Origin: Candidatus Omnitrophota bacterium | Lineage (GTDB): Bacteria; Omnitrophota; Gorgyraeia; JAZDFF01 | Assembly (NCBI GenBank): GCA_043808095.1 | Contig: JAZDFF010000042.1 | Coordinates: 38,667 to 102,666, forward strand | Reading direction: 5' to 3' | DNA length: 64,000 nt | Shown: piece by piece, positions 2,983-62,396 of the stretch | How positions within the stretch are numbered: position 1 is the first letter of the stretch | Layout of the letters: the number at the start of each line of letters is the position of its first letter | Program-made: the position numbers and the translations under genes | Notes under the pieces: model-generated | Database searches by the model: none | What the model was told of the DNA's origin: nothing | The model's input: only the letters and a program-made list of their open reading frames with translations

Positions 2983-3005
2983 CTTGACATCAAAGATGTC
3001 AAGGA
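2983..3005. repeat. family J palindrome CCTTGACATC-nnn-GATGTCAAGG
   Basis: Perfect 10-bp stem, 3-nt loop. Second copy at 45228..45252. Confidence 0.85.
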
Positions 3006-3044
3006 TAACTTGTCGTATTTATAACTTATTATGATTAATATAAT

Positions 3045-4832
3045 CTATAATTCGTTTATTGTCAATGCTTTTTGCAGATCGCGTTGTAATTTATGCCTGT
3101 CTTGGCCAAGATCAATATGCTCCCAGGGCAAGATTTCATCAAAAGACCTCCTGCGAAGAGCATAAAAGAAAGGGTCTATTCCTTGCTTATTGAAAGCCTC
3201 CATCCACAACGGGAAATTGAAGTATTCCCTCCAGCTATCAAATTTAGCCCCTTCCTGGAAGGCATTTAATATTACCTTGGCAATCCTACGGTCCCCCCGA
3301 CAAAGAACCGCTTCTAGAAAACCCATTTGAAAATCATGGAATTTTAAATTCACTAGATGCGGCCTACTAGACCTTAGTCGGGATATAAGATATTTTTTTT
3401 TATTCTCGAGGCTGGTTAAACTATCCATCTCTTGCCACTGAAAAGGCGTATGGCTCTTTGGGATAAAACAAGATATGCTTACGTTTATTACGGCAAGATG
3501 GCCGTCAATTTCTTTTCTTAATCTGGATAGGGCTACGGCAAGGTCAATAATCCCGTCTAGATCTTTTTCATTTTCCGTAGGTAGCCCGAGCATAAAATAG
3601 AGTTTCAGGTGTCGGTATCCACAGACGAATGCCTGATGGCTTACCTTGACCAATTCATCTAGATCTACATTTTTATTAATGACCTTTCTTAAACGCTCGG
3701 TTCCTGCCTCAGGCGCAAAAGTCAGGCCGCTTTTTCTTACTTTTGCTAAAAGTGCGGTTATATCACTCAATGAGCTCCTTGGTTTCAAAGAAGGCAGTGA
3801 TATCCCCACATATTTATCCTGGAAAAACTCCATCAATTCCTTAATTATCTCTTTTAATTTGGGATGGTCGCTTGAAGAAAGCGAAAGTAAAGACATCTCT
3901 TCATATCCGGTACTATTGTAACAGTCTTTGGCAAGCCTTAAGACAGAGTTAACAGACCTAGGCCGAGCTGGCCGATAAAAACAAAAAGCCTGACAAAATC
4001 TACAGCCACCAGGACATCCCCGCATGATCTCAAGCGTGATACGGTCATGAACTATCTGGATAAAAGGAACCAGCCACCGGGTCGGAAAAAATGCCTTGTC
4101 TAGATCATGGACTATCCGACGGATTATCTTAGTGGGAACGCTTCTTTGTCTTGGTGAAAATTTTTTAATCCTGCCATCCTCATTATATTCTACCTCATAT
4201 AAAGACGGAACGTACACGCCCTTTATCTTGGCTGACTCAAGTAAAAGCTTATCTTTTCGAAGGACGAGAGATGAAAGACGTTGGACGGTAAACTCCTTAT
4301 ATTTCTCGACCACCTCTAAGATCAATTCCTCTGCCTCGCCAATACAAAAGAGGTCAATAAAATCCGCCAGCGGCTCAGGATTAAGACAACAACAACCTCC
4401 GGCAATAATCAAAGGATGCCTGCTATCCCTATCTTTAGAAAGAAGCGGTATGCCGGATAAATCCAGGATATTTAATAGATTTGTATAATTAAGTTCATAT
4501 TGTAGGGAAAAACCGATTATATCAAATTCAGATAACGGCGTGTGCGTCTCGAGGGAAAAAAGCGGGATTTTATCTTTTCGTAAGATCTCTTCTAAATCCG
4601 TGTCCGGGGAAAATACCCTTTCGCAGGCAATATCGGATTGCGCATTTAAAAGCCCGTAGAGGATGCGCAGCCCCAGATGGCTCATGCCTACCTCATACAA
4701 ATCCGGGTAGCATAGGGCTATTTTGACTTTAGCATTATGGTGGTCTTTTCTGCTTACATTGTATTCATTACCGAGGTATCTGGCGGGTCTTTTTACTTTA
4801 GAGATAATCTCTTCGAAGTTAGTTAAGTTCAT
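3045..4832 (-). CDS. B12-binding-domain radical SAM protein (TIGR03960-like)
   Basis: The radical SAM CxxxCxxC motif RGCPGGCRFCQA is present, and the N-terminal region resembles a B12-binding Rossmann-like domain. Length is 595 aa. Confidence 0.75.
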   Translation of the reverse strand: MNLTNFEEIISKVKRPARYLGNEYNVSRKDHHNAKVKIALCYPDLYEVGMSHLGLRILYGLLNAQSDIACERVFSPDTDLEEILRKDKIPLFSLETHTPLSEFDIIGFSLQYELNYTNLLNILDLSGIPLLSKDRDSRHPLIIAGGCCCLNPEPLADFIDLFCIGEAEELILEVVEKYKEFTVQRLSSLVLRKDKLLLESAKIKGVYVPSLYEVEYNEDGRIKKFSPRQRSVPTKIIRRIVHDLDKAFFPTRWLVPFIQIVHDRITLEIMRGCPGGCRFCQAFCFYRPARPRSVNSVLRLAKDCYNSTGYEEMSLLSLSSSDHPKLKEIIKELMEFFQDKYVGISLPSLKPRSSLSDITALLAKVRKSGLTFAPEAGTERLRKVINKNVDLDELVKVSHQAFVCGYRHLKLYFMLGLPTENEKDLDGIIDLAVALSRLRKEIDGHLAVINVSISCFIPKSHTPFQWQEMDSLTSLENKKKYLISRLRSSRPHLVNLKFHDFQMGFLEAVLCRGDRRIAKVILNAFQEGAKFDSWREYFNFPLWMEAFNKQGIDPFFYALRRRSFDEILPWEHIDLGQDRHKLQRDLQKALTINEL

Positions 4833-5014
4833 GAATTATTTTACAACAAAAATGACTAAATTTATGTTAAATGAGGTTAAATAAAGTTAATTGAGGTTGT
4901 ATAAGGTTGCTTTTAAAAAAGCAACATCAGGAAACTTCATACAACATCAGATAACCTCATATAACCTTAAGGTAACAGAGTAAAATTCGCCTTGCTTATG
5001 TCTTGTGGCATTGC

Positions 5015-6133
5015 TCAGAAGACTATCTTCCTTCTGCCGATATTTAAGATTATCCCCAGATATAAAAAAGTAATAAATATGGATGAGCCGCCATAGCTCA
5101 TTAAAGGCAAGGCCAAACCTACAACCGGCATCATCCCCATGGTCATAGCGATATTGACCACTATCTGAAAAGTCAAAAGGCTGATAATGCCCGCGAGGAT
5201 TAATTGAGCGAAAGCATCATTTGTAGACTTATAAACTTCTACTACACGGTAAATAATAAAGAAATATAACAAGATAATAAGGCTGGCACCTAAAAATCCG
5301 AACTCCTCCCCTATTACCGAAAAAATAAAATCAGTATGACGTTCAGGTAAAAAATTAAGTTGATTCTGAGTCCCAGCCAGCCACCCTTTTCCCAGAAAAC
5401 CTCCCGAACCTATGGCAATCTTAGACTGGATAATAGTATAACCTGCACCAAGGGGGTCAAGATTAGGATTTAAAAAAACGAGCAACCTGGCTTTTTGATA
5501 CCCCTTTAATAGATGTAATAAAATCGGTGCTCCCCCTATTCCTATCACAAACATTGAAAAAATATATCTTAAATTTATGCCAGCAATTAAGAGCATCGCA
5601 AAGAATACTGGTATTAAACTTAAGGCGGCTCCGAGATGCGGTTCCTTAAATATCAAAAACATTGGTAAAATCAAAATCATCGATGGAAAAATCAGGTCTC
5701 TGAAAATTGGGACGCTAAATAAACTGTTTGAGTAGAAATGCATATCGAGCCTCTTTTTAGAAAAATGCTTTGCCAGGACTAAGATTACGGACAGCCTTGC
5801 CAGTTCAGAAGGCTGAAAATTTAATCCTAAAATATCCAGCCAGCGCTGTGCGCCTTGCCGGGGTCGAGCTACCACCAAGACCAAGATGAGAAGAATGCAA
5901 CTCAATATATAAAACCACCAGGCTAAGTCATTGAATCTGCGATAATTAAAATTCATCATTAATACGAGAAAAATTATGCCGATACTTAACCAAATGACTT
6001 GTCTGGTGAGAAAATCATTCTGAAACGAATGACCCACCTCGTTGGTGCTGCTGTAAATAGCCAATAGGCTAATGACCGAGATAAGTAAAACCGAAATTAA
6101 TATTCCGAAATCTAGATTGCCTCTTGCGCGCAT
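5015..6133 (-). CDS. rodA: peptidoglycan glycosyltransferase RodA (FtsW/RodA/SpoVE family)
   Basis: Polytopic membrane protein with SEDS signatures (GSGGFLGKGW, PERHTDFIFSVIGEEFGF). It lies downstream of mrdA in the mre cluster. Confidence 0.9.
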   Translation of the reverse strand: MRARGNLDFGILISVLLISVISLLAIYSSTNEVGHSFQNDFLTRQVIWLSIGIIFLVLMMNFNYRRFNDLAWWFYILSCILLILVLVVARPRQGAQRWLDILGLNFQPSELARLSVILVLAKHFSKKRLDMHFYSNSLFSVPIFRDLIFPSMILILPMFLIFKEPHLGAALSLIPVFFAMLLIAGINLRYIFSMFVIGIGGAPILLHLLKGYQKARLLVFLNPNLDPLGAGYTIIQSKIAIGSGGFLGKGWLAGTQNQLNFLPERHTDFIFSVIGEEFGFLGASLIILLYFFIIYRVVEVYKSTNDAFAQLILAGIISLLTFQIVVNIAMTMGMMPVVGLALPLMSYGGSSIFITFLYLGIILNIGRRKIVF

Positions 6134-6207
6134 AATTTTACTTAGAACCCTTTGTTTACAGTTTAAACTCTAAGCACTAAACTCTTCCCGCACAACTTGT
6201 AAAATAT

Positions 6208-6235
6208 GGCGGGATCCCGCAAAGCGGGAAAATCC
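6208..6235. repeat. REP-like palindrome family A (GCGGGATCCCGCAAAGCGGGAAAAT)
   Basis: Also at 21654..21678 (inverted), 22509..22538 and 38087..38115 (variant). A degenerate copy is at 36665..36715. Confidence 0.85.
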
Positions 6236-6423
6236 TAAACAATTTGTACTATTCAAAAGTCGAGTTAACAGTTTGAAGCTCGGTTTTTCGGTATGGATGC
6301 TCGTATCGATGCTCGTCTTGGAAACTCGTCTTATGTTTTATCTAGCTTCGAGCATCTAGCTTCGATATCCTTAGATTGTACTCAAGATACCGTCCTGAGC
6401 CTGTCGAAGGACGATACCAGCAT

Positions 6424-6514
6424 CCCTGCCTCACCGGCCCTTAGGAATTTTACATTGTAAAATTCCAAGGACTAAGTCCCGGAAATTCTCCGAATTTCTC
6501 GGGGCAGGCAGGGA
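6424..6514. repeat. ~90-nt palindromic repeat element (family C), copy 1, inverted relative to copies 2 and 3
   Basis: Near-identical to 30260..30355 and 49429..49517. Core CCGAGAAATTCGGAGAATTTCCGGGACTTAGTCCTTGGAATTTTACAATGTAAAATTCCTAAGGGCC, bracketed by CCTGCCTG.../...CAGGCAGG arms. Confidence 0.9.
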
Positions 6515-6671
6515 CAACCTAAGACGAATATCGACACCTTGGCTGTTGTGATATAGATTGTAAACACATCTCTTGAATTATACACGTAGTCGAACCATTA
6601 GGATTTCGGCACTTCGACTTTGCTCAGTGCCGATGGTGAGCGAAGTCGAACCATCGGATTTAGGATTTTAA

Positions 6672-8393: not shown

Positions 8394-8395
8394 GA

Positions 8396-8902
8396 TTATT
8401 TGAAAGAGATAAAAAGCGGCTGCCTGGCTACTGGCTTAAGCACCTTCTTCAAGACGACGAATATTAAAGGTAGGATAACAACAGTATAAATAGCCGAAGG
8501 CAATATGGTATAAACCAATGCCCTTAAAAAGATTAAATCTGTGTAGAATATCTTGAGAATGAAATAATGGGCGATTTCATAGATTAAAACCGATAATGAT
8601 CCAATAAGAATTTTGGAAGTCGTGGTTTCTTTATAGAGGTATTTATTAAGATAACCCAGGACTAAACCGAGCAGCCCGAGACTCAAGGTATTTATTCCGA
8701 ATAAATCGACACTTAAGAGATCCTCTAAAACCCCCGCCAGGCATCCGTAGAGACCCGCCTCCTGAGGGGGACAGTTAAGCCCAAGATAAATTATAAGTAT
8801 TATCGAAAGATTCGGCTTTATATTATTAAAAAACACACCCAAACCTAAGGCCTCAAGAAAGACGAAGACCACCAACAGGATAAATACTTTTAATCTATTC
8901 AT
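8396..8902 (-). CDS. mreD: rod shape-determining protein MreD
   Basis: Small polytopic membrane protein immediately downstream of mreC, overlapping its end by 8 nt. Confidence 0.75.
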   Translation of the reverse strand: MNRLKVFILLVVFVFLEALGLGVFFNNIKPNLSIILIIYLGLNCPPQEAGLYGCLAGVLEDLLSVDLFGINTLSLGLLGLVLGYLNKYLYKETTTSKILIGSLSVLIYEIAHYFILKIFYTDLIFLRALVYTILPSAIYTVVILPLIFVVLKKVLKPVARQPLFISFK

Positions 8903-9677: not shown

Positions 9678-9695
9678 TCAATAATATAAAACAAA

Positions 9696-10781: not shown

Positions 10782-10836
10782 ACTTACTCCTGTTCTGGTA
10801 ATATATCAGACTCCAAACTTACTGTCAATTAAAATC

Positions 10837-12207: not shown

Positions 12208-12212
12208 GAAGA

Positions 12213-12983: not shown

Positions 12984-13085
12984 CTTTGAACCTCCTTCGA
13001 CTGACTCCGCTCTCCCACTATATCAAGTGAAACGAATCACTCTTTTTTAGTGATTTTAATTATTATAACATAATAAGAATGGATT

Positions 13086-14728: not shown

Positions 14729-14769
14729 TTTATTTAAACTCTAGCCTCAAAATAACACAACTACTGAGA

Positions 14770-14870
14770 ATATCTAATTCTTAATGCCTAATTTAAAATT
14801 GACATTTAATCATTAAAAAATTAATTAGGAATTAGGGCTTAGGCATTAGTCATTTAATCTTGATATAAAA
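14770..14870. repeat. family K AT-rich repeat, copy 2 (lgt-lspA gap)
   Basis: See 1360..1480. Confidence 0.6.
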
Positions 14871-14883
14871 TATAATCTCGGAT

Positions 14884-15761: not shown

Positions 15762-15782
15762 GCTTGCCCCTTTCAGGTTGTG

Positions 15783-18572: not shown

Positions 18573-18826
18573 CTTTTTAAAGTAGAGAGTAGCGGAATGA
18601 AGAAATCACAAATTCCAAATTACAAATCACAAACAAATCCCAATAACAAAATCCAAATGACCAAAACCATTGTTTGTAATTTCGGTATTTGATATTGTAT
18701 ATTGTTTGTTATTTGTGGTTTGTTTATTGTAATTTAACAATTCTCTTTACTCTCTACTCGCTACTTAAACAAATCTGTGTTTATCTGTGTAATCTATGCT
18801 TTTTAATCTGTGTAATCAATTTTATT

Positions 18827-19732: not shown

Positions 19733-19818
19733 TAATAAAATATTAGCTAGATAATAGATGCTAGATACAAGATACTAGTTAAAATTGTTATGTTAGCACG
19801 TAATTTTGTATTTTTAGA

Positions 19819-21511: not shown

Positions 21512-21631
21512 TTTTGATTCTTTTACAAATTTAATCTAATAATTTAAGGATTTTATTAACTCTATTTAAATTCTAAATTCCAATGACCAAAACAAAAATG
21601 GTTTTAAATATTTGAATTTAGAATTTGTTTC

Positions 21632-21678
21632 GTCTGCCTGCCGGCAGGCAGGAATTTTCCCGCTTTGCGGGATCCCGC
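21632..21678. repeat. composite: family B palindrome TCTGCCTGCCGGCAGGCAGG plus family A REP (inverted)
   Basis: The family B palindrome recurs at 58950..58968 and 62318..62342. Its arms also bracket each 90-nt family C element. Confidence 0.85.
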
Positions 21679-21757
21679 TAGATTTGTTTTATATTTTGGT
21701 GCGGGACGTATTTCGTGCTTCGAATTTATGTGCTGTCCTTTTCTAAGTCAGCTTAAG

Positions 21758-22438
21758 TTAATCTGTGTTTCCGAAGATCGCTCTTCCTAATCTAACCATG
21801 GTCGCCCCTTCTTCTATGGCAATTTGATAATCATCAGTCATGCCCATTGATAAAACCTGCAACTCGTCTCTCGTAACTCGAAACTCGTTAATTTTATCTT
21901 TTAGCCCTCTTAGTGCCCTAAAATAGGGCCGGGCATTATCCGGTTTATCGACGATTGGGGCGATGGTCATCAGGCCCTTTAAATTCAAATTCTTAAGGCT
22001 GGCTATTTCTTTTACAGTTTCGATTGCCTCCTCAGGCTTAAGGCCGAATTTTGTGGCTTCATCCGAGGTATTTACCTCGATTAAAATCTCCTGAACCTTA
22101 TTTATCTTTCTCGCCTCTTCGTCAATAACCATGGCAAGACGCAGGCTATCTACGGAATGAATCAGGGAAAATAACTTAACCGCATCTCTTGCCTTGTTGG
22201 TCTGTAAGTGGCCGACCATATGCCATTTAAGAGCTGGCAATCGGCTAAATTTTACCGTTGCTTCCTGAACTCGGTTTTCTCCGATATCTTGTATCCCTAA
22301 ACCGATAACTTCTTTAATATCCTCGATAGTAGCGGTTTTCGTAACTACCACTATTGTAATCTCGTCTTTGCTTTGTTTAGCCCTTTGACAAACTGCCGCA
22401 ATATTATCTCTGATTATTTTAAGATTTTCGCTAATCAT
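21758..22438 (-). CDS. yggS: YggS-family pyridoxal-phosphate homeostasis protein
   Basis: Alanine-racemase N-terminal-like fold, VTKTATIEDIKEVIGLGIQDIGENRVQE. The yggS-proC adjacency is conserved. The likely start is the internal MISENLK; the upstream 20 codons of the ORF-track call overlap a REP element. Confidence 0.85.
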   Translation of the reverse strand: MISENLKIIRDNIAAVCQRAKQSKDEITIVVVTKTATIEDIKEVIGLGIQDIGENRVQEATVKFSRLPALKWHMVGHLQTNKARDAVKLFSLIHSVDSLRLAMVIDEEARKINKVQEILIEVNTSDEATKFGLKPEEAIETVKEIASLKNLNLKGLMTIAPIVDKPDNARPYFRALRGLKDKINEFRVTRDELQVLSMGMTDDYQIAIEEGATMVRLGRAIFGNTD

Positions 22439-22508
22439 CTTGTTAAAGGGATTCACAAAAAACGTTTCGCCCTTGATTACAGAGATTATCCCGCACAATA
22501 GAAAATAT

Positions 22509-22610
22509 CAGCGGGATCCCGCAAAGCGGGAAAATCAGATTACAGAGATTCATGTTAGTCAATAAATCACTGTAATCTTTTCTAAAATCGCCGTAATCAA
22601 CAGCCCAAGA
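22509..22610. repeat. family A REP followed by family D (GATTACAGnGATT / AATCACTGTAATC inverted pair)
   Basis: Family D also occurs at 23404..23495, 30222..30234, 42742..42827 and 48256..48339. Confidence 0.85.
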
Positions 22611-23375: not shown

Positions 23376-23403
23376 TTTCTTATCTACTAAATAAAAATTA
23401 CAT

Positions 23404-23495
23404 TGATTACAGTGATTTTTCCCGCCACAAAGATTGGCGGGTCCGCCAAAGCATTATGGCGGAAAAACCGATTACAGCGATTAATCACCGGAATC
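23404..23495. repeat. family D REP pair flanking GC hairpins (CCGCCAAAGCATTATGGCGG)
   Basis: GATTACAGTGATT ... GATTACAGCGATTAATCACCGG. The inner hairpin also appears at 49399..49419. Confidence 0.8.
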
Positions 23496-23527
23496 TATTT
23501 TGATAATCTCTGGAATCATGCTTTTCT

Positions 23528-24148: not shown

Positions 24149-25377
24149 TTTCCTTCGGAATATCTAACTTTTACGGAATCTAAATGCTGATTCAGACCCT
24201 CAATGGTAGCCATTTTCTCTAAGGGCTCCCTAATCTTTTCTAAGGCCTTCTTGGAATAACTGATGATGTGATTAGTCTTAATAAAATCAAATACGGAAAG
24301 CCCGGAGAAGAATCTGGCCGTGCCTGCCGTAGGTAGGACGTGGCTTGGCCCGGCAACATAATCCCCCACTGCAGTCGGACTATACGGACCTAAAAATATT
24401 GCCCCGGCATTTTTTATCCCTTTTAGAAGCCGGTTAGGATTTCTGACTAAGATTTCAAGGTGTTCGGGCGCAATTCTGTTAGAAATCTCAACCGCAGAAT
24501 CCATATTCGAAACTAAGATGATATAACCCTCGATATCTGCCTGGGATTTTATTTCCTTAGCCAGAGATTTTGAATTAGTAATAAGTATGGCCAGGCCTTT
24601 GCTATGTTCTGCCTGGGCCTTGAGGTCGGCGATGATAAATTTGGGGTCGCTGAAACGATTGGCAATAATTACCAGTTCCGTCGGGCCGGCAATCATATCA
24701 ATATCCACTAGGCCAAAGACCTGGCGCTTTGCCTCCTGGACATAGATATTGCCCGGGCCGACAATTTTGTCTACCCTGGGAACAGTCTTTGTCCCGTAGG
24801 CGAGCGCGGCAATACCCTGAGCTCCGCCAACGCGATAAATTTCATCTACCTTTAATAGATCAGCCACAACTAAGATATGCGGATTGATATAGCTATTTTT
24901 ATCCGGGGGGCTGATTAATATAATCTTTTTTACGCCGGCAATCTTCGCAGGAAGCGCCGTCATATATACGGTAGAAACTAAAGGCGCAGTACCGGCCGGG
25001 ATATAGATACCAACTTTTTCGAGCGGCCCATAATTCTCGCCCAAGATAAGGCCGTCTCCTCCTTTAAGCCTCCAGGATTTTCTTAAGGTCTTACGATAAA
25101 ACTTGTTGATATTTTCAATAATCAGCTTAAGGCTTGAGACAAAATTCGGGGTGATACTTTGGTAGGCGCCGCTTATCTCATTCGGTAGGACCTTAAGCTG
25201 CCTGGATGATATTTTTACCTTATCGAATTTCTTGGTATACTTTAAAAGCGCCTCATCACCTGATGCACGCACATCTTCGATAATCTTTCGTACCCGTTCC
25301 TCAATACGCCGCGGGCGTAAGTACCTGCGGTCATAAATCTTTTCTAAGGTCTTGCTGTTTGCTCTGATTATTTTCAC
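24145..25377 (-). CDS. hisD: histidinol dehydrogenase
   Basis: HisD fold over 410 aa; overlaps the hisB start by 4 nt. Confidence 0.9.
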   Translation of the reverse strand: MKIIRANSKTLEKIYDRRYLRPRRIEERVRKIIEDVRASGDEALLKYTKKFDKVKISSRQLKVLPNEISGAYQSITPNFVSSLKLIIENINKFYRKTLRKSWRLKGGDGLILGENYGPLEKVGIYIPAGTAPLVSTVYMTALPAKIAGVKKIILISPPDKNSYINPHILVVADLLKVDEIYRVGGAQGIAALAYGTKTVPRVDKIVGPGNIYVQEAKRQVFGLVDIDMIAGPTELVIIANRFSDPKFIIADLKAQAEHSKGLAILITNSKSLAKEIKSQADIEGYIILVSNMDSAVEISNRIAPEHLEILVRNPNRLLKGIKNAGAIFLGPYSPTAVGDYVAGPSHVLPTAGTARFFSGLSVFDFIKTNHIISYSKKALEKIREPLEKMATIEGLNQHLDSVKVRYSEGK

Positions 25378-25491
25378 CCTGTTAGACCTCCAGTGAATTT
25401 AGTTAAAACGTAATTATTATAAAAAATAGCATTTATTATAAATATTTGCATATAGTTTGCATTTTTAAAAGGCCTAACAGGGTTCATGGTA

Positions 25492-30165: not shown

Positions 30166-30259
30166 TTTAATCTCCCTTTCATTAAAAACAGTCCTTCACG
30201 AAATTAACCTAAAGGGCTGTTGATTACAGCGATTTAGCCTCGAGTTTTAATCCTTGAAT

Positions 30260-30355
30260 CCCTGGCTGCCCCGAGAAATTCGGAGAATTTCCGGGACTTA
30301 GTCCTTGGAATTTTACAATGTAAAATTCCTAAGGGCCGTCAGGCAGGTATTTTTT
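30260..30355. repeat. ~90-nt palindromic repeat element (family C), copy 2
   Basis: Same sequence as 49429..49517. Sits in the recA-degP gap. Confidence 0.9.
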
Positions 30356-30451
30356 GATCTCTGTAATCAAGGGCGAAACGATACTTCGATTTCACTCAGT
30401 ATTCGTCCTGAGCTTGTCGAAGGACGAATTTGTGAAGCCCTATTAAAAAGA

Positions 30452-31489: not shown

Positions 31490-31736
31490 ATTGGGTCCTC
31501 CTTAAAAATTAACCTTATTTAAAAATGAAGGGTTTTCTCCAGGGTTAGGGAATGTATTATACAATATCAAAATTCTAATGTCAATGGTTCGATTGTACTC
31601 ACCATTGATACTGAAACCCTCAACTTCGTTCGGGATGGTGAGCAAAAGGCGAACCAGAGGAATAATGAGCCTGTCGAACCACGAAGTTGAATGTATCAAA
31701 CAGGATTTATACCTTAAAATGGCTGCCAAACACCTC

Positions 31737-36637: not shown

Positions 36638-36819
36638 TTCAGCCTCGCTTTTTTAATCGCTTCCCGCCCATCAGCTGGATCCCGCATCTTCGGAAAACAC
36701 AGAGCGGGAAAAACGCAAAATCACTTTTGGCAATACCTATACCGCTAAGGCCGCCAAATTTTTTCTTTGCGTTCTTGGCGAAGTTTCTAATAATTACCTT
36801 TTTTTGCGTTCTTTGCGGT

Positions 36820-38019: not shown

Positions 38020-38043
38020 CTTAAAATAAGTAAATCCATTTTA

Positions 38044-38187
38044 CACAGATGGGCACAGATTATCCCGCACCAAAATAAAAAAAATCCAGCGGGATCCCGC
38101 TATGGCGGGAAAAGAAACAGATGGGCACAGATATTTCTCGTCGGAATCTGTGCTAATCTGCGAGCCTTTCATCTGTGCTAATCTGTG
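38044..38187. repeat. family F repeats (ACAGATGGGCACAGAT and ATCTGTGCTAATCTG units) with an embedded family A REP
   Basis: ACAGATGGGCACAGAT at 38044..38060 and 38117..38132. ATCTGTGCTAATCTG x2 at 38146..38187. Same units at 47030..47150. Confidence 0.85.
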
Positions 38188-40313: not shown

Positions 40314-40355
40314 CTTTCCTCCTCATTCACTTCGCTCATTCGTCGGTATTACTAG

Positions 40356-40382
40356 TTACAAGTTATAGGTTATAAGTTACAA
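40356..40382. repeat. left inverted repeat flanking the four-helix-bundle (IVS-protein) gene
   Basis: TTACAAGTTATAGGTTATAAGTTACAA. Its reverse complement, TTGTAACTTATAA / ATAACTTGTAA, is found at 40756..40774. Confidence 0.7.
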
Positions 40383-40391
40383 ATTAAAAAA

Positions 40392-40751
40392 TTATAGGTT
40401 ACTTTCAGAAGTTTTAACAATAGAAGTTAGTATCTTTATGATAATTTCAATTTCATCTAATAAAGACTTAATTTTGGAGTTACTAATCAATTCCGAGAAC
40501 AAAACTAATCTTAACCAATATCTTGTTTCTCTGGCCTCTTTCTTTGCTATATTCATACAATTTGTAAATTCTTTCTTTGTTCTTGCTCCCGTAGCTTCTT
40601 CTACATTCGCACCAATAGAAGTACCGGCTTTTAAAAGTTGCCTTCCTAATTCGAAACCAGCCGTATTTTCTGGTAAAAGTTTGACTAATTTGACGACTTC
40701 TATAGTAAAGTCAAATGTTCTTTCTTTAATTTTTTTCTCTTTTTCACTCAT
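40392..40751 (-). CDS. four-helix-bundle protein (TIGR02436; '23S rRNA intervening-sequence protein'-like)
   Basis: ERTFDFTIEVVKLVKLLP...GRQLLKAGTSIGANVEEA...ARETRYWLRL matches the IVS-protein family consensus. Flanked by short inverted repeats. Confidence 0.75.
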   Translation of the reverse strand: MSEKEKKIKERTFDFTIEVVKLVKLLPENTAGFELGRQLLKAGTSIGANVEEATGARTKKEFTNCMNIAKKEARETRYWLRLVLFSELISNSKIKSLLDEIEIIIKILTSIVKTSESNL

Positions 40752-41218: not shown

Positions 41219-41227
41219 TTTAAATGA

Positions 41228-41277
41228 GCCCCTGCTGATTCGCTTTGATGAGCAAAGCGAATCAAAGCGGCAGGGGC
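41228..41277. repeat. family H 50-nt nested perfect hairpin
   Basis: GCCCCTGC-TGATTCGCTTTG-ATGAGC-AAAGCGAATCA-AAGCG-GCAGGGGC. Outer 8-bp stem around an inner 11-bp stem. Copy 2 at 60064..60110 is inverted. Confidence 0.9.
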
Positions 41278-41447
41278 GAATTTAACCCCCACTGTTTCGT
41301 TTTGGTTCGTTTTGTACCTAGAAATCGCTTTGCGATTTCAGGGATTAAATCCCGGAAATGCTTCGTATTTCACGGGACTTCACCAAAAGCGAAACAAAAC
41401 GGTGGGGGTAAGTTCGGACTGATCCCGACGGTACCGTCGGGATGTCC

Positions 41448-42680: not shown

Positions 42681-42741
42681 CTTATTTTCTCCACATTTAA
42701 TCTATTATAATAGGCTGTCACGAAAATCGTTCCAGCCTAAT

Positions 42742-42827
42742 GATTCCAGTGATTTTGAATAAGATTCCAGTGATTATCTCAATGACAAGCTGAATCGCTG
42801 TAATCTATTTGCCTAATCACAGTAATC
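42742..42827. repeat. family D REP cluster (two direct plus two inverted units)
   Basis: GATTCCAGTGATT x2, then AATCGCTGTAATC and AATCACAGTAATC. Confidence 0.85.
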
Positions 42828-42891
42828 AAGCGCGGAACTTTTGTGACGCCCTATTTATTATAAATTCAAGTGTTTAATTTTACAAGAAAAA

Positions 42892-45227: not shown

Positions 45228-45252
45228 CCCTTGACATCAGAGATGTCAAGGG
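45228..45252. repeat. family J palindrome, copy 2
   Basis: CCCTTGACATCAGAGATGTCAAGGG. Confidence 0.85.
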
Positions 45253-47029: not shown

Positions 47030-47150
47030 AAAATTGGTACACAGATGGGCACAGATTGATAGTCTAAATCATCCTGTTTTTCACAGATTAGAACAGATTA
47101 TCTGTGCTAATCTGTTCTTTCCATCTGTGATAATCTGTGCATTTTTTTAC
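47030..47150. repeat. family F repeats in the oppC-oppD gap
   Basis: ACAGATGGGCACAGAT at 47030..47045, then CACAGATTAGAACAGATTATCTGTGCTAATCTG...CATCTGTGATAATCTGTG. Confidence 0.85.
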
Positions 47151-48232: not shown

Positions 48233-48255
48233 ATGCTCTATAAATAATTAAGTAT

Positions 48256-48339
48256 GATTACAGAGATTATTAAATAGATTCCAGTGATTATTTTATAAAA
48301 GTTAATCACTGTAATCTTTATTTGAAATCACCGTAATCA
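48256..48339. repeat. family D REP cluster (two direct plus two inverted units) in the oppB-oppC gap
   Basis: GATTACAGAGATT, GATTCCAGTGATT, AATCACTGTAATC, AATCACCGTAATC. Confidence 0.85.
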
Positions 48340-49322: not shown

Positions 49323-49428
49323 TTTTAAAGCAGAATCAAATAAATATTAAAAATGTCTAATTACTAATGTCGTCCACCACTGAATCTTTGGTGGACGCCC
49401 GCCAAAGCATTGTGGCGGGCGAATGTCG

Positions 49429-49517
49429 CCTGCCTGCCCCGAGAAATTCGGAGAATTTCCGGGACTTAGTCCTTGGAATTTTACAATGTAAAATTCCTAA
49501 GGGCCGGTGAGGCAGGT
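49429..49517. repeat. ~90-nt palindromic repeat element (family C), copy 3
   Basis: Same sequence. Sits in the oppA-oppB gap, preceded by an extra GC hairpin CGCCCGCCAAAGCATTGTGGCGGGCG (49395..49421). Confidence 0.9.
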
Positions 49518-51254: not shown

Positions 51255-51261
51255 GATATTT

Positions 51262-51681: not shown

Positions 51682-51770
51682 CATAAAAAACACCTAAATA
51701 TTTTATTTTAGCGACATCCGCAGAAGCGAAATAACGAAATTTATTCTACGAAGCCTTGGTGAAGTAGAAG

Positions 51771-52541: not shown

Positions 52542-52544
52542 GAA

Positions 52545-53726: not shown

Positions 53727-53814
53727 TTGTGAATTCCTTTTTGATAATTATAAAACCCTAAGATTGCCATATTTTACAATAGCTATATTTGATTGTCAAC
53801 CAATGATTTAAAAC

Positions 53815-55191: not shown

Positions 55192-55224
55192 GTAATTTTA
55201 TTATAGGGCAAGTTACACTTGGCG

Positions 55225-57772: not shown

Positions 57773-57827
57773 CTAAAATTTTTACCCCTTATGGAAATTT
57801 TTTACAAGGAAAATCTAAGAGGAAAGT

Positions 57828-57877
57828 ATTGAAAAATAACAAGGCACATTGTCTTTTGCCTTATAACAACGTGCCTT
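57828..57877 (-). terminator. putative rho-independent terminator downstream of gap
   Basis: On the minus strand: AAGGCACGTTGTTATAAGGCAAAAGACAATGTGCCTT, a 12-bp imperfect stem, followed directly by GTTATTTTTC. Confidence 0.45.
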
Positions 57878-57894
57878 ATATTAATTTTGGGGGT

Positions 57895-58908
<1,014 letters not shown>

Positions 58909-59042
58909 TTAAACCTCCTCAATGACCCCGACGTTACGTCGGGGGGAATTCCTGCCTGCCGGCAGGGATCCCCGCCCATTTTTACCTTAAACCTAAGCCA
59001 TCCTTGTTAAAGGGGCGGGGTACATTAATTTAAAGTTAACTA

Positions 59043-60044
59043 TTATTTAGCTTCTCTTAAGTACTTAGCAGCCATTTCTGGCGGCGTTGACACGATATAA
59101 AAACCTGTCCCCCATTCAAAACCTGCGGTCCTGGCAAGGCGCGGCATAATCTCAAGATGCCAGTGATATCCGCCTTCTTTATCCGGATCATCTAAAATTG
59201 GTGAAGTATGGATGATGAAATTGTAAGATGGGTCGTTTAGAGTTACCCTGATTCTTCTTAGGGTCTCTTTTAGAACCTTGGCCATATCGGATATCTCTTC
59301 ATTAGTAATATGAAAGAAATATGGGTTGTGTTTTTTGGGGACAATCCAGGTCTCAAACGCAAATCTTGAGACGAACGGGCAGAAAGCCAAAAAATGTTTT
59401 GATTCCAAAACTAAGCGCCCTTTATCCTGCATCTCCTGGGACATGATATCGCAGAAAATGCAGCGCTCTCTGAATTCAAAATAATCTAAGGAACCCTTGA
59501 TTTCCTCAGCAACATTCTTGGGTATCATAGGAAGCGCAATGAGTTGCGAGTGCGGATGGGTAAGAGATGCCCCGGCAGATAATCCGTAATTTTTAAAGAC
59601 CAAGGTATATTTAAACCGTTTATCACGCAACAAATCAATAGCCCGACGACAGTACATATGTATGATATCGTCTACTTCTTGGTCAAGAAGATCAGGTATG
59701 TTCTTGTGATGATAAGGGGTTTCAATAATTACCTCGTGAGCACCAATACCGTTAGACATATCAAAGATTCCTACGCCGCGCCTGGCCAAATCGCCCTCAA
59801 CCTGTAAGGCCGGGAATTTATTCGGTACGACTCTCACCGTCCAACCAGGGGTATTCGGGCTGGTCCTTGAATCCCGCACTGCCTCTATTTCAGGAGGAGT
59901 CTGAGCTTCGTTTCCGTAACAAAAAGGACACTTATCATCCTTGACAGGATGCATTTCCGTTTCGAAATCTTGCGGCTTTTTGGGCTCATCAGTTTCTACA
60001 ATTACCCAGCGGGCGACTATAGGATCTTTTCTTAATTCTGCCAA
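59043..60044 (-). CDS. galT: galactose-1-phosphate uridylyltransferase-family (HIT branch) enzyme, canonical HPH active site
   Basis: CPFC zinc motif and THPHSQLIALP active-site motif. Confidence 0.8.
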   Translation of the reverse strand: MAELRKDPIVARWVIVETDEPKKPQDFETEMHPVKDDKCPFCYGNEAQTPPEIEAVRDSRTSPNTPGWTVRVVPNKFPALQVEGDLARRGVGIFDMSNGIGAHEVIIETPYHHKNIPDLLDQEVDDIIHMYCRRAIDLLRDKRFKYTLVFKNYGLSAGASLTHPHSQLIALPMIPKNVAEEIKGSLDYFEFRERCIFCDIMSQEMQDKGRLVLESKHFLAFCPFVSRFAFETWIVPKKHNPYFFHITNEEISDMAKVLKETLRRIRVTLNDPSYNFIIHTSPILDDPDKEGGYHWHLEIMPRLARTAGFEWGTGFYIVSTPPEMAAKYLREAK

Positions 60045-60063
60045 ATTAAGGCCTCCTTAATGA

Positions 60064-60110
60064 GCCCCTGCCGCTTTGATTCGCTTTGCTCATCAAAGCG
60101 AATCAGCAGG
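60064..60110. repeat. family H nested hairpin, inverted copy, between the two galT paralogs
   Basis: CCCCTGCCGCTTTGATTCGCTTTGCTCATCAAAGCGAATCAGCAGGGG. Confidence 0.9.
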
Positions 60111-60167
60111 GGGGATAAATCAGACATACAATTTACGTTCACTTCGTTCCGTAAATTGTGTCTTCAT

Positions 60168-61190
60168 TTAGACTTCCGTTTCCCTCATGAATTTTGCCGC
60201 GCTTTCAGGCGGCGTAGGACAGATATAAAAACCCGTACCCCACTCAAAACCCGCAACCCGAGTAAGCCTTGGGGTTATCTCTAAATGCCAGTGATAATCC
60301 TGGTCAATAGTCTTCCAATAACCTGCCTTGGGTCTTCTTAATGGAGCGGTATGTAATATAAAATTATAGGGCGGGTCATTAACACACTTCTTTAATTTAA
60401 GTAGAACTGTTTTTAATACCTGCGACAGGTCAGCTATCATCTGCGGTTTAATAGCCTGAAAATCGCAGGCATGTTCTTTGGGCAATATCCAGACCTCAAA
60501 AGGATAACGGCAGGCAAAGGGTACAACTGCTACAAAACCATCGATATCCAAGACAAGCCTTTCTTTACTTTCTAATTCCTGGCGAATTAAATCGCAGAAG
60601 ACACAGCGTTCGTGGTAATTAAAATAACGTTTAGACCCCTCAAGTTCTTCTTTTACCCGGCGGGGAGTAACAGGAGTGGCAATCAATTGAGAGCGCGCAT
60701 GTTTAATCCTTCCGGCGCCTGCGGCCCAGCCATAGTTTTTAAAAAGCAATATATATTTAAAACGCTTATCTTTCTCTAAATCAAAGACCCTGTCTTTAAA
60801 ACAATTAATAACCTTATTAATCTGCTCGGCCGACAAATCCGCAATATTACTGATATGATTAGGGGTCTCGATAATCACTTCATGCGCGCCTATGCCATTC
60901 ATCACATCAAAAAGGCCTTCTCCGCGCCTATCCAGGCCGCCTTCTATGCGAAGCAGCGGCTTGATGCTTGGTACAACTCTGACCTCCCAACCAGGTCCGT
61001 TTGCCCTGGTACGGGCAGGCCTAACCGCCATAATCTCAGGAGGGGTCTCGGATTCATGGCCTTCACAAAAAGGACACGTTCCTTCCTGAGGACCGGCCTC
61101 CATCTGGCCAAACTGATCAGGCCGTTTTGCCCTCTCAGTAGCAATAATAACCCAGCGACCGATTATAGGATCTTTTCTTAATTCCGGCAT
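60168..61190 (-). CDS. GalT-family paralog with substituted active site (KHARSQ instead of HPHxQ)
   Basis: Collinear with the upstream galT over its whole length. It keeps CPFC, but the nucleophile position of the H-P-H triad is Arg. Confidence 0.75.
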   Translation of the reverse strand: MPELRKDPIIGRWVIIATERAKRPDQFGQMEAGPQEGTCPFCEGHESETPPEIMAVRPARTRANGPGWEVRVVPSIKPLLRIEGGLDRRGEGLFDVMNGIGAHEVIIETPNHISNIADLSAEQINKVINCFKDRVFDLEKDKRFKYILLFKNYGWAAGAGRIKHARSQLIATPVTPRRVKEELEGSKRYFNYHERCVFCDLIRQELESKERLVLDIDGFVAVVPFACRYPFEVWILPKEHACDFQAIKPQMIADLSQVLKTVLLKLKKCVNDPPYNFILHTAPLRRPKAGYWKTIDQDYHWHLEITPRLTRVAGFEWGTGFYICPTPPESAAKFMRETEV

Positions 61191-61311
61191 AGCCTTCGTT
61201 TAACTGGAGGAGTTTACAATAATCTGTTTACAGTAAAAGATTTTTTTTACACAATTTACTAAAAAGTAACTCTCAAATTATATCACAGATGAAATCCGAT
61301 GCAAGAAAAAT

Positions 61312-62247
61312 CTATCCCAATGTATCGCCGGGGCTAATCTTGTGACCGGCAATAAAACTCCCTGCATCCAGAACCTTGGATGATTCTAATTGAAGCACCT
61401 TTATGGTTAAAATACCTCCTCCTGTGATAACAGAAATACCTTCCTTATTTACCTCACTAATATATCCCGGTAATTTTTTAGGCACTTCGGTAGGATTTTG
61501 GACTTCGCTCTTATAGATTTTAAGAAGCTCATCTTTATAATAGGTAAAGCTCCCCGGCCAAGGAAGCAACCCTCTTATGCGGTTATGAATTTCTAAAGAG
61601 GATTTTTGCCAATCAATCAGGCCGTCTTGTTTTTTTAGTTTGGGGGCGTAACTTGCCTCCTCTTCATTTTGTTCGGTCAGAGAAAAATCTCTATTTTCGA
61701 TTTTGTGTAATACCTTAGCAAAACTGGAGGCAGCCAACTTTGATAACTTGTCCTTAAGGCTTAGATAATCGTCGGAGGCCAAGATGCCAATTTTATCTTT
61801 TAAGATGATCTCGCCTTTATCCATAAACTCATTCATTTTTATAATGGTGATACCTGTTTCTTTATCGCCGTTAATGATTGCCCAGTTTATACAGGAAGCC
61901 CCCCGGTATTTAGGCAGGAGCGAGGCATGGATATTGATACTAAAGATTTTGGGAATCGCAAGAACCTCTCTTTTTAAAATCTGGCCAAAATGAACCACGA
62001 TAAATAGATCCGGGTTTAAAGACTCTAGATATTTTAGTGAATCAGGACTATTAATATCTTGAGGCTGAAAAACTGGGATTTCTTTTTTCAGAGCAGCCTC
62101 TTTAATCAAAGATGGTACTAATGGCAGATGCCTTCCTTTTCTGGTGTCGCCCCCGGTAACAACGGCTAAGACCTTATACCTTGATTCCATTAAAGTCTGG
62201 AGGCAGGGTAAAGCAAACTTATCAGTTCCGAAGAATACGATATCCAT
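61312..62247 (-). CDS. fmt: methionyl-tRNA formyltransferase
   Basis: N-terminal formyltransferase domain (SLLPKYRGASCINWAIINGDKETGITI) and C-terminal Fmt domain. Confidence 0.9.
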   Translation of the reverse strand: MDIVFFGTDKFALPCLQTLMESRYKVLAVVTGGDTRKGRHLPLVPSLIKEAALKKEIPVFQPQDINSPDSLKYLESLNPDLFIVVHFGQILKREVLAIPKIFSINIHASLLPKYRGASCINWAIINGDKETGITIIKMNEFMDKGEIILKDKIGILASDDYLSLKDKLSKLAASSFAKVLHKIENRDFSLTEQNEEEASYAPKLKKQDGLIDWQKSSLEIHNRIRGLLPWPGSFTYYKDELLKIYKSEVQNPTEVPKKLPGYISEVNKEGISVITGGGILTIKVLQLESSKVLDAGSFIAGHKISPGDTLG

Positions 62248-62303
62248 TTCTTTCTAAATTAATTACGATTTAAAGTTAACTATCAACGATTACTTATTTT
62301 ATA

Positions 62304-62396
62304 AACGGATGCATACGAATTATTACGCCTGCCTCACCGGCAGGCAGGGATGTCGCAGATAAAAATATCCGTATGAATCCGTGTTTTTCATCCGTT
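62304..62396. repeat. family G array plus family B palindrome in the priA-fmt gap
   Basis: AAACGGATGCATACG...CCTGCCTCACCGGCAGGCAGG...ATCCGTATGAATCCGTG...CATCCG. Confidence 0.75.

Follow-up and report, generated by a model that had tools for sequence, protein, structure and literature searches.

The window analysed here is the whole 64,000-nt stretch, taken from a Candidatus Omnitrophota MAG. Intergenic DNA amounts to 8.9% of it, and 25 of the 26 intergenic gaps of at least 100 nt hold one or more recurring palindromic elements, bearing out an earlier note that had claimed this for nearly every such gap. The catalogued elements (Table 1) span 3014 of the 5405 intergenic bases (56%). They sit within a few bases of where that note had placed them (family I starts at 41424, not 41419), and by Pfam assignment and synteny they do interrupt operons, namely between oppA, oppB, oppC and oppD, PBP2 and rodA, hisB and hisH, hisD and alaS, and recA and htrA. 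Compared with shuffled sequences, minus-strand folding gives z < -2 in 21 of 31 gaps (mean -3.8) as against none of the 30 coding control windows of 150 nt each.

Table 1. Repeat elements in the intergenic gaps of the window
Element	Position	Strand	Remarks
K1 AT-rich word-array palindrome (TAATTCC-type heptamers, then complement)	1365-1472		period 7, 4.7 copies; gap z = -2.8
M1 hairpin TCACTTACG...CGTAAGTGA	2936-2965		related hairpins in L001
J1 CCTTGACATC-AAA-GATGTCAAGG	2982-3004		
Word-array palindrome, GAGGTTA-type words, 54-nt arms	4861-4970		
A1 long-form twin hairpin: TCCCGC-17 nt-GCGGGA, TCCCGC-AAA-GCGGGA, then AAA	6185-6232	+	
Word-array palindrome, GATGCTCG / CGAGCATC words	6290-6370		
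L1 hairpin CGTCCT-GAGCCTGTCGA-AGGACG	6388-6416	+	pan-bacterial motif
B+C copy 1: 67-nt C-core (6438-6504) flanked by CCTGCCTCACCGG and CAGGCAGG	6425-6512	+	
L2-type palindrome, GTCGAACC...GGTTCGAC-type arms	6586-6664		
K2 AT-rich word-array palindrome, CCTAAT / ATTAGG words	14774-14854		
Word-array palindrome, ACAAAT words	18602-18735		left arm matches 53/56 nt of in-frame gene insertion in L300 (other Omnitrophota MAG)
F-like array, ATCTGTG words	18771-18817	-	
Heptamer array CTAGATA x4.6	19746-19778		
K3 AT-rich palindrome	21568-21626		
B, empty: TCTGCCTGCCGGCAGGCAGG	21633-21652		
A2 long-form twin hairpin	21655-21706	-	
D+A composite: A3 (22488-22534) between two identical GATTACAGAGATT units of D hairpin	22470-22606	+	
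D+A-like composite, hisB/hisH: twin hairpin 23419-23467 between D units	23403-23517	+	genes overlap in L001
Inverted repeat ACCCTGTTAGACC...GGCCTAACAGGGT around 80 AT-rich nt, hisD/alaS	25376-25483		genes overlap in L001
D hairpin GGGCTGTTGATTACAGCGATT...GATCTCTGTAATCAAGGGCG hosting B+C copy 2 (30261-30347; C-core 30269-30335, minus orientation)	30214-30375		recA-htrA gap 43 nt in L001
L pair: CTTCGATTTCACTCAG then CGTCCTGAGCTTGTCGAAGGACG	30380-30428	+	
L2-type element GAGCCTGTCGAACCAC, recA / GGDEF divergent region	31586-31690		
Degenerate A variant	36660-36713	+	
F+A composite: A4 (38062-38113) between two ACAGATGGGCACAGAT units, then two inverted units	38043-38187	+	
Heptamer array TTACAAG x5.4	40349-40386		
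H1 nested hairpin	41226-41277		
C-like MITE: long arms CCCCCACTGTTTCG...AAACGGTGGGGG around variant C-core, centre GGGATTAAATCCC	41286-41408		gap z = -14.1
I1 CCCGACGGTACCGTCGGG	41424-41441		
D-MITE, 143 nt, terminal inverted repeats TAGGCTGTCAC...GTGACGCCCTA, four D units	42711-42853		full-length alignment with L001 3205-3353
J2	45229-45251		
F element (u1 u2 u2' u1'), oppC/oppD	47039-47139		
D element (u1 u2 u2' u1'), oppB/oppC	48255-48339		
A-like twin hairpin: GTCCACCA..TGGTGGAC, then GCCCGCCA..TGGCGGGC	49369-49422	+	
B+C copy 3 (C-core 49437-49503), oppA/oppB	49429-49516	-	
I2 CCCCGACGTTACGTCGGGG	58926-58944		
Partial B, then GC hairpin CCCCGCCC...GGGGCGGGG	58951-59020		
H2	60062-60114		
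M2 hairpin	60123-60162		
G word-array palindrome (ACGGATG / CATCCGT) hosting empty 21-nt B variant 62328-62348	62304-62406		

The elements fall into three structural classes: twin-hairpin modules (A, C-core); simple GC hairpins (B, H, I, J, L, M); and AT-rich word-array palindromes (D, F, G, K). Modules of the first class are dyad-symmetric twin hairpins with sharp GC-rich ends. Family A consists of TCCCGC-loop-GCGGGA and then TCCCGC-NNN-GCGGGA and measures about 45-52 nt here and 30 nt in Patescibacteria; the C-core has the form CCCTNWG-hairpin-N'AGG ACTNAGT CCCG-hairpin-WCGGGG, over 63-67 nt. The word-array palindromes share the layout u1-u2-loop-u2'-u1', and their class includes the 143-nt MITE-like element with terminal inverted repeats. 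Family D (GATTMCAGNGATT) has 13 exact matches in the window against 0.02 expected, and with one mismatch allowed 19 of its 21 matches are intergenic; family F (CACAGATNNNMACAGAT) has 10 against 0.06, and its heptamer CACAGAT is intergenic in 16 of 19 occurrences. Every copy of A (3/3), C (3/3), L (3/3), J (2/2) and H (2/2) in the window is intergenic. The three C copies (78-88 nt) are 99% identical, and family copies are as much as 43 kb from one another. For H, I, J and M, with two copies each here, mobility is putative. Family G of the earlier note is not confirmed as a family: of 37 CGGATG occurrences just 4 are intergenic, and there is a single local word array. The composites that the note described are real: A with B (21633-21706), A with D (twice), B with G, and C inside B (three times). 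A with F occurs as well, and one B+C lies within a D hairpin.

Comparison with a syntenic relative (L001, RecA 85% identical) reveals filled and empty sites. The 286-nt recA-htrA gap has a counterpart of 43 nt in L001, and the gaps between hisB and hisH (152 nt) and between hisD and alaS (114 nt) correspond to overlapping genes in L001, which bears D, variant F, I-like and M elements at other gaps. Its F word differs on both arms within the same layout (CGCAGAT, as against CACAGAT here), and the D-MITE aligns over about 145 nt with an L001 copy in a non-orthologous gap. Within the window, filled B minus empty B (CCTGCCTCACCGG^CAGGCAGG at 62328) is exactly 67 nt. Among other loci, L300 presents an empty site (...GAATTT^AAAGAC...) at which L009 carries a 45-nt A without duplication, L037 and L047 have A in that gene at two further YTT^AAA positions, and a TTTTTGA array in the leader of L224 contains a 63-nt C-core that the L293 leader lacks. 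Such pairs of filled and empty sites identify the elements as discrete DNA insertions. The twin-hairpin modules insert without target duplication into T^A junctions, heptamer arrays, and the apex or internal loop of palindromes of the other two classes; for A the junction is TTT^AAA, where the right-hand AAA flank was partly imposed by the search pattern and independent support comes solely from the empty L300 site. Nesting is seen in the C-core at the centre of B and in A between D or F units. Both orientations are carried, and composites amplify as units, the 88-nt B+C being present three times at 99% identity.

The motifs also occur beyond the window, and none is part of an annotated ncRNA. 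Families A, B, L and the C-core are common to other genomes and phyla: the A core was found at 75 loci in 596 Gb, against a chance expectation of about 0.3, in Omnitrophota, many classes of Patescibacteria, Ignavibacteria and Margulisiibacteriota, and the C-core at 92 metagenome loci. In relatives, elements inserted in genes leave the reading frame open. Family A is translated in frame in enolase (where Enolase_N begins at residue 17), TsaD (where the A-coded stretch is a gap in a solved homologue) and CysS, with further coding copies in RluA-type, UvrD and DnaJ proteins. One Omnitrophota protein has a single site that acts as an insertion hotspot: there, 51 of 100 homologues carry translated, in-frame A, B, hairpins or word arrays.

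With a probability of roughly three in four, we read the gaps as holding miniature mobile DNA elements that are non-autonomous, nested into a mosaic and moved in trans. Compensatory changes at six C-core base pairs count in favour, although covariation and strong folding could also reflect a selected RNA or DNA structure. The enzyme moving the elements would be encoded elsewhere. The likeliest candidate, put forward tentatively, would be a transposase of the IS200/IS605-RAYT kind, an HUH/Y1 enzyme that works on single strands and recognises extruded hairpins; for the D-MITE, a DDE enzyme targeting TA may serve instead. Against this reading, neither a transposase nor any other mobilising enzyme was found in the window, no recurrent transposase adjoins A or the C-core, and L conserves only a stem of 4-5 bp.

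A classical REP/REPIN system, in which the hairpins are REPs spread as inverted doublets by a domesticated RAYT elsewhere in the genome, resembles this mosaic in several ways. The repeats are short, GC-rich, imperfect palindromes, mostly extragenic, of several families and often paired or clustered; duplication-free insertion fits HUH chemistry; and REPINs are defined as REP doublets that form hairpins and are linked to RAYTs (PMC3116915). RAYT-type REPs, however, bear a GTAG or CGTC tag (PMC3733652), which is lacking at the ends of A, B and the C-core. No RAYT or IS200/IS605 TnpA homologue was detected in the window, nor a match to two approximate queries for them in 1.7 Mb of element-bearing loci. 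REP-RAYT pairs are lineage-specific, whereas the present families cross phyla, lie in frame within genes, and include an AT-rich word-array class that has no REP counterpart. We therefore regard this explanation as unlikely. The earlier note's broader view of mobile REP/MITE-like families holds in general, as they are insertion-polymorphic against the relative, nested, and found in other genomes; the RAYT that it suggested is conjectural.

That note had also proposed structured intergenic RNAs, and host-selected modules in operon transcripts (RNase barriers or processing sites, attenuators, small RNAs), spread by their function and not by mobility, would account for the very strong folding z-scores, for the compensatory changes at six C-core base pairs, for the intercistronic location of elements in the opp, his and mre operons, and for the position of H, I and M directly 5' of CTCATTRA-GGAGG-ATG. 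Rfam, however, gave no match even at E<=1, and C, A and L show no bias in their orientation to co-directional genes (C 18:11, A 16:11, L 16:13); both results fit mobile DNA. L stems show G.T mismatches as often as A.C mismatches. Terminator-like sites reach no excess (22 against 19.9 +/- 4.2), the elements are also translated within genes, and orthologous gaps of the close relative lack them. Selected RNA modules thus seem decidedly unlikely.

Alternatively, an HNH-AP2 homing-type endonuclease might cut empty B or word arrays and have repair copy the filled version, dispersed host repeats supplying the homology. This would explain both the nesting in other repeats and the absent target duplications, and HNH_3+AP2 genes do occur in 7 of the 92 C-core loci but are absent from about 1.2 Mb of other loci; in L224, L276, L243 and L255 the C-core precedes their start codon by 30-280 nt and shares their strand. 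A protein-first search nevertheless found the C-core at none of five independent HNH-AP2 loci, these genes come from Sedimentisphaerales (Planctomycetota) and not from Omnitrophota, and the window has none. Since HNH-AP2 leaders are themselves word arrays, the adjacency may only mirror target preference (L293 empty, L224 filled), and we consider such gene conversion improbable. It is more improbable still that the word arrays (D, F, G, K) are iteron- or operator-like binding sites with a regulatory or architectural and not a mobile nature. Their word period of 7-10 nt, close to one turn of the helix in D and F units, and the TTGACA in both arms of J upstream of two genes would suit such a role; the layout nevertheless stays constant when the word changes on both arms, an array matching at 53 of 56 nt is translated within a gene of another MAG, and the D-MITE has terminal inverted repeats and occupies non-orthologous sites. 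Slippage can yield short tandem heptamer arrays, but local duplication, slippage or misassembly confined to the region is refuted by the presence of the families in assemblies made independently, from other samples and phyla; the distances between copies in the window also speak against it.

Returning to miniature mobile DNA, elements within the operons of opp, his, mre and rec share the operon transcript and form stable folds, and they may therefore have a secondary, putative effect on mRNA decay. Small hairpin-forming repeats nested in one another crowd the intergenic spaces of this uncultured Omnitrophota bacterium; most probably they are selfish miniature mobile DNA, in an unusually dense and partly new form, and not a set of RNA genes.

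The window holds about 52 genes, nearly all on the minus strand, with a GC content of about 41% and a GC skew that is negative throughout. Those identified from Pfam and synteny are housekeeping genes only: mshEN, GGDEF, a radical-SAM gene, rodA and PBP2-mreD-mreC-mreB; aroA, a rluD-type gene, lgt, lspA, dksA and ileS; proC, yggS, hisH, hisB-hisD, alaS-recX-htrA and recA; smc, pilZ, etfA, etfB, and genes for an acyl-CoA dehydrogenase, a GNAT protein, an NTP-transferase and a TPR protein; oppF-oppD, oppC, oppB, oppA, secG, tpiA, pgk, gidA and gap; and two galT-like genes, fmt and priA. The same sources gave no transposase, integrase or endonuclease gene within the 64 kb. The galT-like genes are tandem paralogues with DNA stretches 72-76% identical, and the gap between them carries the hairpins H2 and M2. 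For the yggS-like ORF, the TTG start assigned by mechanical calling lies over a D unit and the beginning of a D+A composite; the real start is probably further downstream, and ORF calls here can therefore be inflated by repeats.

The claim of the earlier note that the gaps are saturated with recurring palindromes proved accurate: 25 of the 26 gaps of at least 100 nt carry one or more catalogued elements, which cover 56% of the intergenic bases. Nearly all members of the repeat families lie in intergenic DNA, although this makes up only 8.9% of the window. Exact D units number 13 (0.02 expected) and F double-words 10 (0.06 expected), while three copies of C agree at 99% identity over 78-88 nt. 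Together the elements occupy about 4.8% of all bases (3045 of 64,000); REPs make up about 0.5-1% of the E. coli genome. Tandem Repeats Finder returned arrays of period 7 and period 10 in the gaps. The composites of families reported before are all present, and A+F and B+C within a D hairpin can be added to them. Only G, proposed as a family on the motif CGGATG, had to be given up, since the hexamer is intergenic in 4 of 37 occurrences, which is no enrichment; it amounts to one local word array.

The catalogued families, lettered A to M, fall into three structural classes: twin-hairpin modules (A and the C-core, the 67-nt form of C); simple GC hairpins (B, H, I, J, L, M); and AT-rich word-array palindromes (D, F, G, K and others). 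An A element reads TCCCGC-loop-GCGGGA followed directly by TCCCGC-NNN-GCGGGA, the whole flanked by T's on the left and A's on the right. Its first loop has 17-22 nt in the window and its total length is 30-52 nt, the 30-nt form in Patescibacteria being a perfect palindrome. The C-core (CCCTNWG-hairpin-N'AGG, ACTNAGT, CCCG-hairpin-WCGGGG) is a dyad centred on GGACTNAGTCC. The word arrays follow the plan unit1-unit2-loop-unit2'-unit1', each unit being a short word repeated every 7-10 nt. The nesting of these elements is regular. The C-core sits exactly between CCTGCCT(G/CA)CCGG and CAGGCAGG, that is at the apex of B, of which empty copies occur as well. A occupies the spacer between two forward units of D and of F, and its orientation relative to the units is unchanged in another Omnitrophota MAG (loci L016 and L018). 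B lies at the centre of a G array, and B+C in the loop of a D hairpin. With its two copies only, the J hairpin may act as a promoter or operator and not belong to the mobile repeats.

Positions of elements, genes and related features (window coordinates unless a locus is named)
Feature	Position	Strand	Remarks
B without C-core	21633; 62328		empty copies
A between forward D units	22488; 23419
A between forward F units	38062
J hairpin	2982-3004; 45229-45251		TTGACA in both arms; a GGDEF gene and a TPR gene lie downstream
L motif, 19 nt	6388-6416; 30404-30428
Word array	18602		left arm found in another MAG
yggS-like ORF	21758-22498		D unit at 22475-22487
Inverted repeat between hisD and alaS	25376-25483		ACCCTGTTAGACC...GGCCTAACAGGGT around 80 AT-rich nt
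TTACAAG heptamer array	40349-40386
23S_rRNA_IVP gene	40392-40751	minus	four-helix bundle
Gap of strongest folding	41219-41447		z reaches -14
C-like MITE	41286-41408		123 nt
D-MITE	42711-42853		L001 3205-3353
GC hairpin and linker	2917; 58915; 60053	minus	hairpins M1, I2, H2
Similar hairpin arrangement	41219 (H1); 45139
galT-like paralogues	59043-60044; 60168-61190
tRNA-Ser-like fragment	L014 6990-7060; L067 7060-7140		followed by A and intact tRNA-Ser(cga)

The part of the earlier reading that took the repeats for mobile miniature DNA is upheld by empty orthologous gaps and by sites found both with and without an element. In a relative (loci L001/L002, RecA 85% identical) that is syntenic with the window over 19.8-41.2 kb, the gaps are short or missing where the window has elements: the recA-htrA gap, 286 nt in the window with D, B+C and L, is 43 nt in L001, and the hisB/hisH and hisD/alaS gaps, of 152 and 114 nt, are replaced by overlapping genes. 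Other gaps of L001 have D elements of their own, I-like and M hairpins, and an F variant with CGCAGAT replacing CACAGAT on both arms. The D-MITE, a D element with terminal inverted repeats, aligns over its full length with a copy sited between different genes in L001; TA flanks it in both, a possible target duplication seen in these two copies. Within the word array at 18602, the left arm matches, at 53 of 56 nt, a sequence translated within a gene of another Omnitrophota MAG, so that local slippage does not account for every word array, some at least being conserved mobile sequences. The inverted repeat between hisD and alaS is a single-copy insertion. The 23S_rRNA_IVP gene, flanked by a heptamer array, has no counterpart at the syntenic site of L001, and homologues were found less than 8 kb from A elements in three loci, L035, L044 and L068. 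The gene seems to be a small mobile cassette.

The clearest evidence on target and boundaries is provided by an Omnitrophota-specific family of secreted or giant proteins with no Pfam domain (L009, L037, L038, L047, L059, L300; proteins P0241-P0360). Between KVMLE and RLKELNEYS lies an insertion hotspot: the segment has its basal length of 15 residues in 49 of 100 homologues, and the other 51 have 2-26 extra residues there, which are in-frame translations of repeat families: SRGGSR of A, LPCRQAG of B, GLSPKGTVP of a GC hairpin and KSQIPNHKSQTNPNIQIQN of an ACAAAT word array. The empty site of L300, ...TATGAATTT^AAAGAC... (^ marking the insertion point), is filled in L009, where a 45-nt A stands between ...TATGAATTT and AAAGAC.... 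A 30-nt A is inserted at CTT^AAA in L037 and a 48-nt A at another TTT^AAA in L047. There is no target duplication in these three independent A insertions, nor is there one for the C-core in B. The A junctions in Patescibacteria are ATG^AAA, at start codons, and TTG^AAAA or ATTG^AAAATTG, in heptamer arrays. For the C-core, the leader TTTTTGATATT^TGATTTTTGATTT of an HNH-AP2 gene (L293) is the empty counterpart of L224, in which 63 nt are inserted at that point.

In a collection of one genome per species, from which the genome of the window is absent, 75 loci contain the A sequence GCGGGATCCCGCNNNGCGGGAAAA, about 0.3 being expected by chance. Going by the record labels, five phylum-level groups or more carry A: about 20 of the loci are from Omnitrophota, and the others are from many classes of Patescibacteria, from Ignavibacteria, from Margulisiibacteriota/Saganbacteria and from some MAGs with the label Gammaproteobacteria. 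In the window, A, B, H and I are hairpins located between genes, and there is no coding copy; coding copies of A occur in relatives. Of 77 copies of A, 38 fall within open frames of 120 codons or more, and Patescibacteria MAGs have them in enolase, TsaD, CysS, RluA-type, UvrD and DnaJ proteins. In the enolase, the Pfam N-domain begins at residue 17, immediately after M-SRGAGSRSAG-K; in TsaD, the solved homologue 8iey is gapped at the A-coded stretch. B was found in exact or near-exact form in Levybacteria and other MAGs. The metagenome scan gave 92 C-core loci, of which about 83 truly belong to the family; Planctomycetota-type loci are included. These C-cores are bordered by B arms, by long inverted repeats or by direct heptamer arrays. 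A had no match in IMG/VR viral contigs, and the L motif is present in at least 120 of them, at 32-73% GC. This 19-nt motif, TCCTGAGCYTGTCGAAGGA (L078-L197), often paired with an inverted partner GCTTCGACAGGCTCAGCATGAGG, is very widespread; a literature search found no published description of it, and no paper matching the A and L sequences or the peptides that they code for. A supposed insertion of A into a tRNA T-loop (L004, L045) was discarded, since ARAGORN finds no tRNA once the element is removed and the element of L004 lies downstream of tRNA-Gln. Two loci have a fragment resembling the 5' half of tRNA-Ser before an A element and an intact tRNA gene, which may be an integration remnant.

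As to what moves the elements, the 'peel and paste' transposition of PATE and IS200/IS605 elements involves subterminal hairpins, no target duplication, a short fixed abutting target and a preference for DNA able to become single-stranded; such single-strand transposition by HUH/Y1 enzymes is established for IS608 and ISDra2. A has a comparable structure, with two hairpins and nothing between them, no duplication and an abutting TTT^AAA or CTT^AAA target. It differs from PATE in being a perfect dyad, while the left and right ends of IS608 differ; in a target, TTT^AAA, that is itself palindromic; and in the lack of a TnpA (PF01797), since no RAYT or IS200/IS605 TnpA was detected in the window, nor, by phmmer with approximate sequences of IS608 TnpA and an E. 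coli RAYT, in six-frame ORFs of 1.7 Mb of element-bearing loci. Nor did all-against-all clustering of the ORFs in these loci bring out a recurrent transposase near A or the C-core, the clusters consisting only of housekeeping synteny (AddA-like helicase, fmt), repeat-translation ORFs and HNH-AP2 genes. The paired hairpins, the absence of duplication, the short fixed target and the preference for the loops of other palindromes would make an HUH/Y1 enzyme the likeliest mobiliser, a candidate that we put forward tentatively and on the features of the elements.

Some elements resemble classical bacterial MITEs such as Correia, ERIC and RUP (PMC10969869): the D-MITE (143 nt) and the C-like MITE have AT-rich flanks and, together with the 88-nt B+C composite, terminal inverted repeats, a length below 500 nt and no ORF. 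They are unlike MITEs in that no parent IS sharing their terminal repeats was found in the loci around A and the C-core, and most families have neither terminal inverted repeats nor duplications.

A RAYT system, suggested in the earlier note, has in its favour that REP, BIME and REPIN sequences are likewise extragenic GC-rich palindromes, imperfect and 20-40 nt long in the case of REPs, forming multi-motif mosaics between co-directional genes in operons (PMC3116915; PMC3733652), and that duplication-free insertion is plausible for HUH enzymes. RAYT-type REPs have an unpaired conserved GTAG (or CGTC) tetranucleotide at one end (PMC3733652); GTAG is absent from the alignments of 77 A copies and 97 C-core loci and from the sequences on either side of B, H, I, J and M, and CGTC appears only inside the L and I stems or at one B copy. 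REPs are specific to a species or genus; the present elements are shared across phyla, have copies outside extragenic DNA and include an additional AT-rich word-array class, and these differences speak against that part of the suggestion. L does not belong to the CGTC REP families of Di Nocera: stem and loop sizes differ, and the sequence is absent from that paper.

The endonuclease genes of the HNH_3+AP2 type, as partners of the C-core, are reduced to a minor rival. They are present in 7 of 92 C-core loci as against none of the other loci, and in four of these the C-core lies 30-280 nt upstream on the same strand; the adjacency was not reproduced in independent homologues (0 of 5 with a C-core), and the family near the C-core belongs to Sedimentisphaerales. 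We treat the adjacency as insertion into leader word arrays. These Sedimentisphaerales genes (L224, L243, L255, L276, L290-L299) have more than 4000 variants and share a conserved leader, GTAGTAGCGCAGAAGCGCAAGG..., after which come word arrays and hairpins that vary; they appear to form a highly mobile gene family themselves.

The other suggestion, structured intergenic RNAs, bears on the folding of the gaps, 21 of 31 of which have z < -2 (mean -3.8) as minus-strand RNA, against 0 of 30 coding windows. RNAalifold on 41 distinct C-core sequences gave 21 pairs, six with compensatory changes (pair 12-29: CG 21, UA 16, GC 3; pair 52-73: GC 19, AU 18). Against RNA genes, Rfam 15 had no match in the window at the gathering threshold nor at E<=1, which removes known ncRNAs as the identity of the elements, and the window has no tRNA or tmRNA. 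Orientation relative to co-directional neighbour genes is unbiased (C 18:11, A 16:11, L 16:13), and the coding copies and empty orthologous gaps tell against the elements being needed as RNA; they may secondarily influence how stable the operon mRNAs are. L is not a long covarying hairpin: only 4-5 bp of its stem are conserved, and G.T and A.C mismatches are equally frequent (position 5: GC 31, AT 22, GT 21, AC 21), hence no strand signal. Several GC hairpins stand directly 5' of a conserved CTCATT(R)A..GGAGG linker and start codon; this arrangement could be a 5'-UTR stabiliser, or the hairpins could carry or target the ribosome-binding region. Intrinsic terminators can be set aside, as terminator-like sites, with a T run after a GC hairpin on the transcribed strand, are not in excess (22 versus 19.9 +/- 4.2 in shuffles) and few fall on elements. 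On whichever strand it is read, A is preceded by T and followed by A.

The closest known analogue would seem to be the SDR and STRR sequences of Nostoc and Anabaena, reportedly modules of 21-27 nt found by Elhai and colleagues in heptamer arrays and in each other, and for which we know of no enzyme. The likeness, one of general features, consists in very small hairpin modules, insertion into tandem heptamer arrays and into each other, and mobility inferred from filled and empty orthologous sites. The elements here differ in being twin hairpins of 30-67 nt with CC..GG ends, in their hosts (Omnitrophota, Patescibacteria and Planctomycetota), in exact cores across phyla and in frequent in-frame coding copies. 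In this last respect A, through its copies in relatives, is like the Rickettsia palindromic elements (RPE; Ogata et al. 2000), which are translated in-frame in unrelated housekeeping genes, measure about 150 bp and are confined to Rickettsia (PMC10969869). By description, A is set apart from RPE by its 30-52 nt, its being open in all frames and its unrelated hosts.

The boldest reading, to which we give about three chances in ten, is that A and the C-core would be undescribed ultra-small twin-hairpin insertion modules, exchanged horizontally between Omnitrophota, Patescibacteria, Planctomycetota, Ignavibacteria and other groups and moved by an enzyme other than a known RAYT or IS200 transposase. 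With the mobile word arrays they would keep reshaping the DNA between genes and, in essential proteins, the surface loops, all in lineages with small genomes. Such modules would be palindromes built of palindromes, 30-67 nt long with CC..GG ends, would insert without duplication at T^A junctions or hairpin apices, and could be read through in every frame. Mobile miniature DNA as a general kind is already known; new are the density of the elements, their regular nesting, the mobile word arrays, and the twin-hairpin modules that occur across phyla, target TTT^AAA and have in-frame coding copies.

Few components of bacterial genomes are as poorly understood as small dispersed palindromes, and to our knowledge nobody knows how most of their families move. 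The window and its relatives offer clean filled and empty sites, a defined TTT^AAA target, a nesting hierarchy and evidence that one and the same 21-nt core passes between phyla for which groundwater and sediment are common habitats. The mobilising enzyme, if found, would be a compact hairpin-specific DNA insertion system. In Omnitrophota and Patescibacteria the elements lengthen N-termini and split operons, which affects gene calls and the prediction of operons, and contigs break at the repeats, which affects assemblies. Protein families are affected as well, through inserts of 10-26 residues in enolase, TsaD, CysS and the giant secreted proteins.
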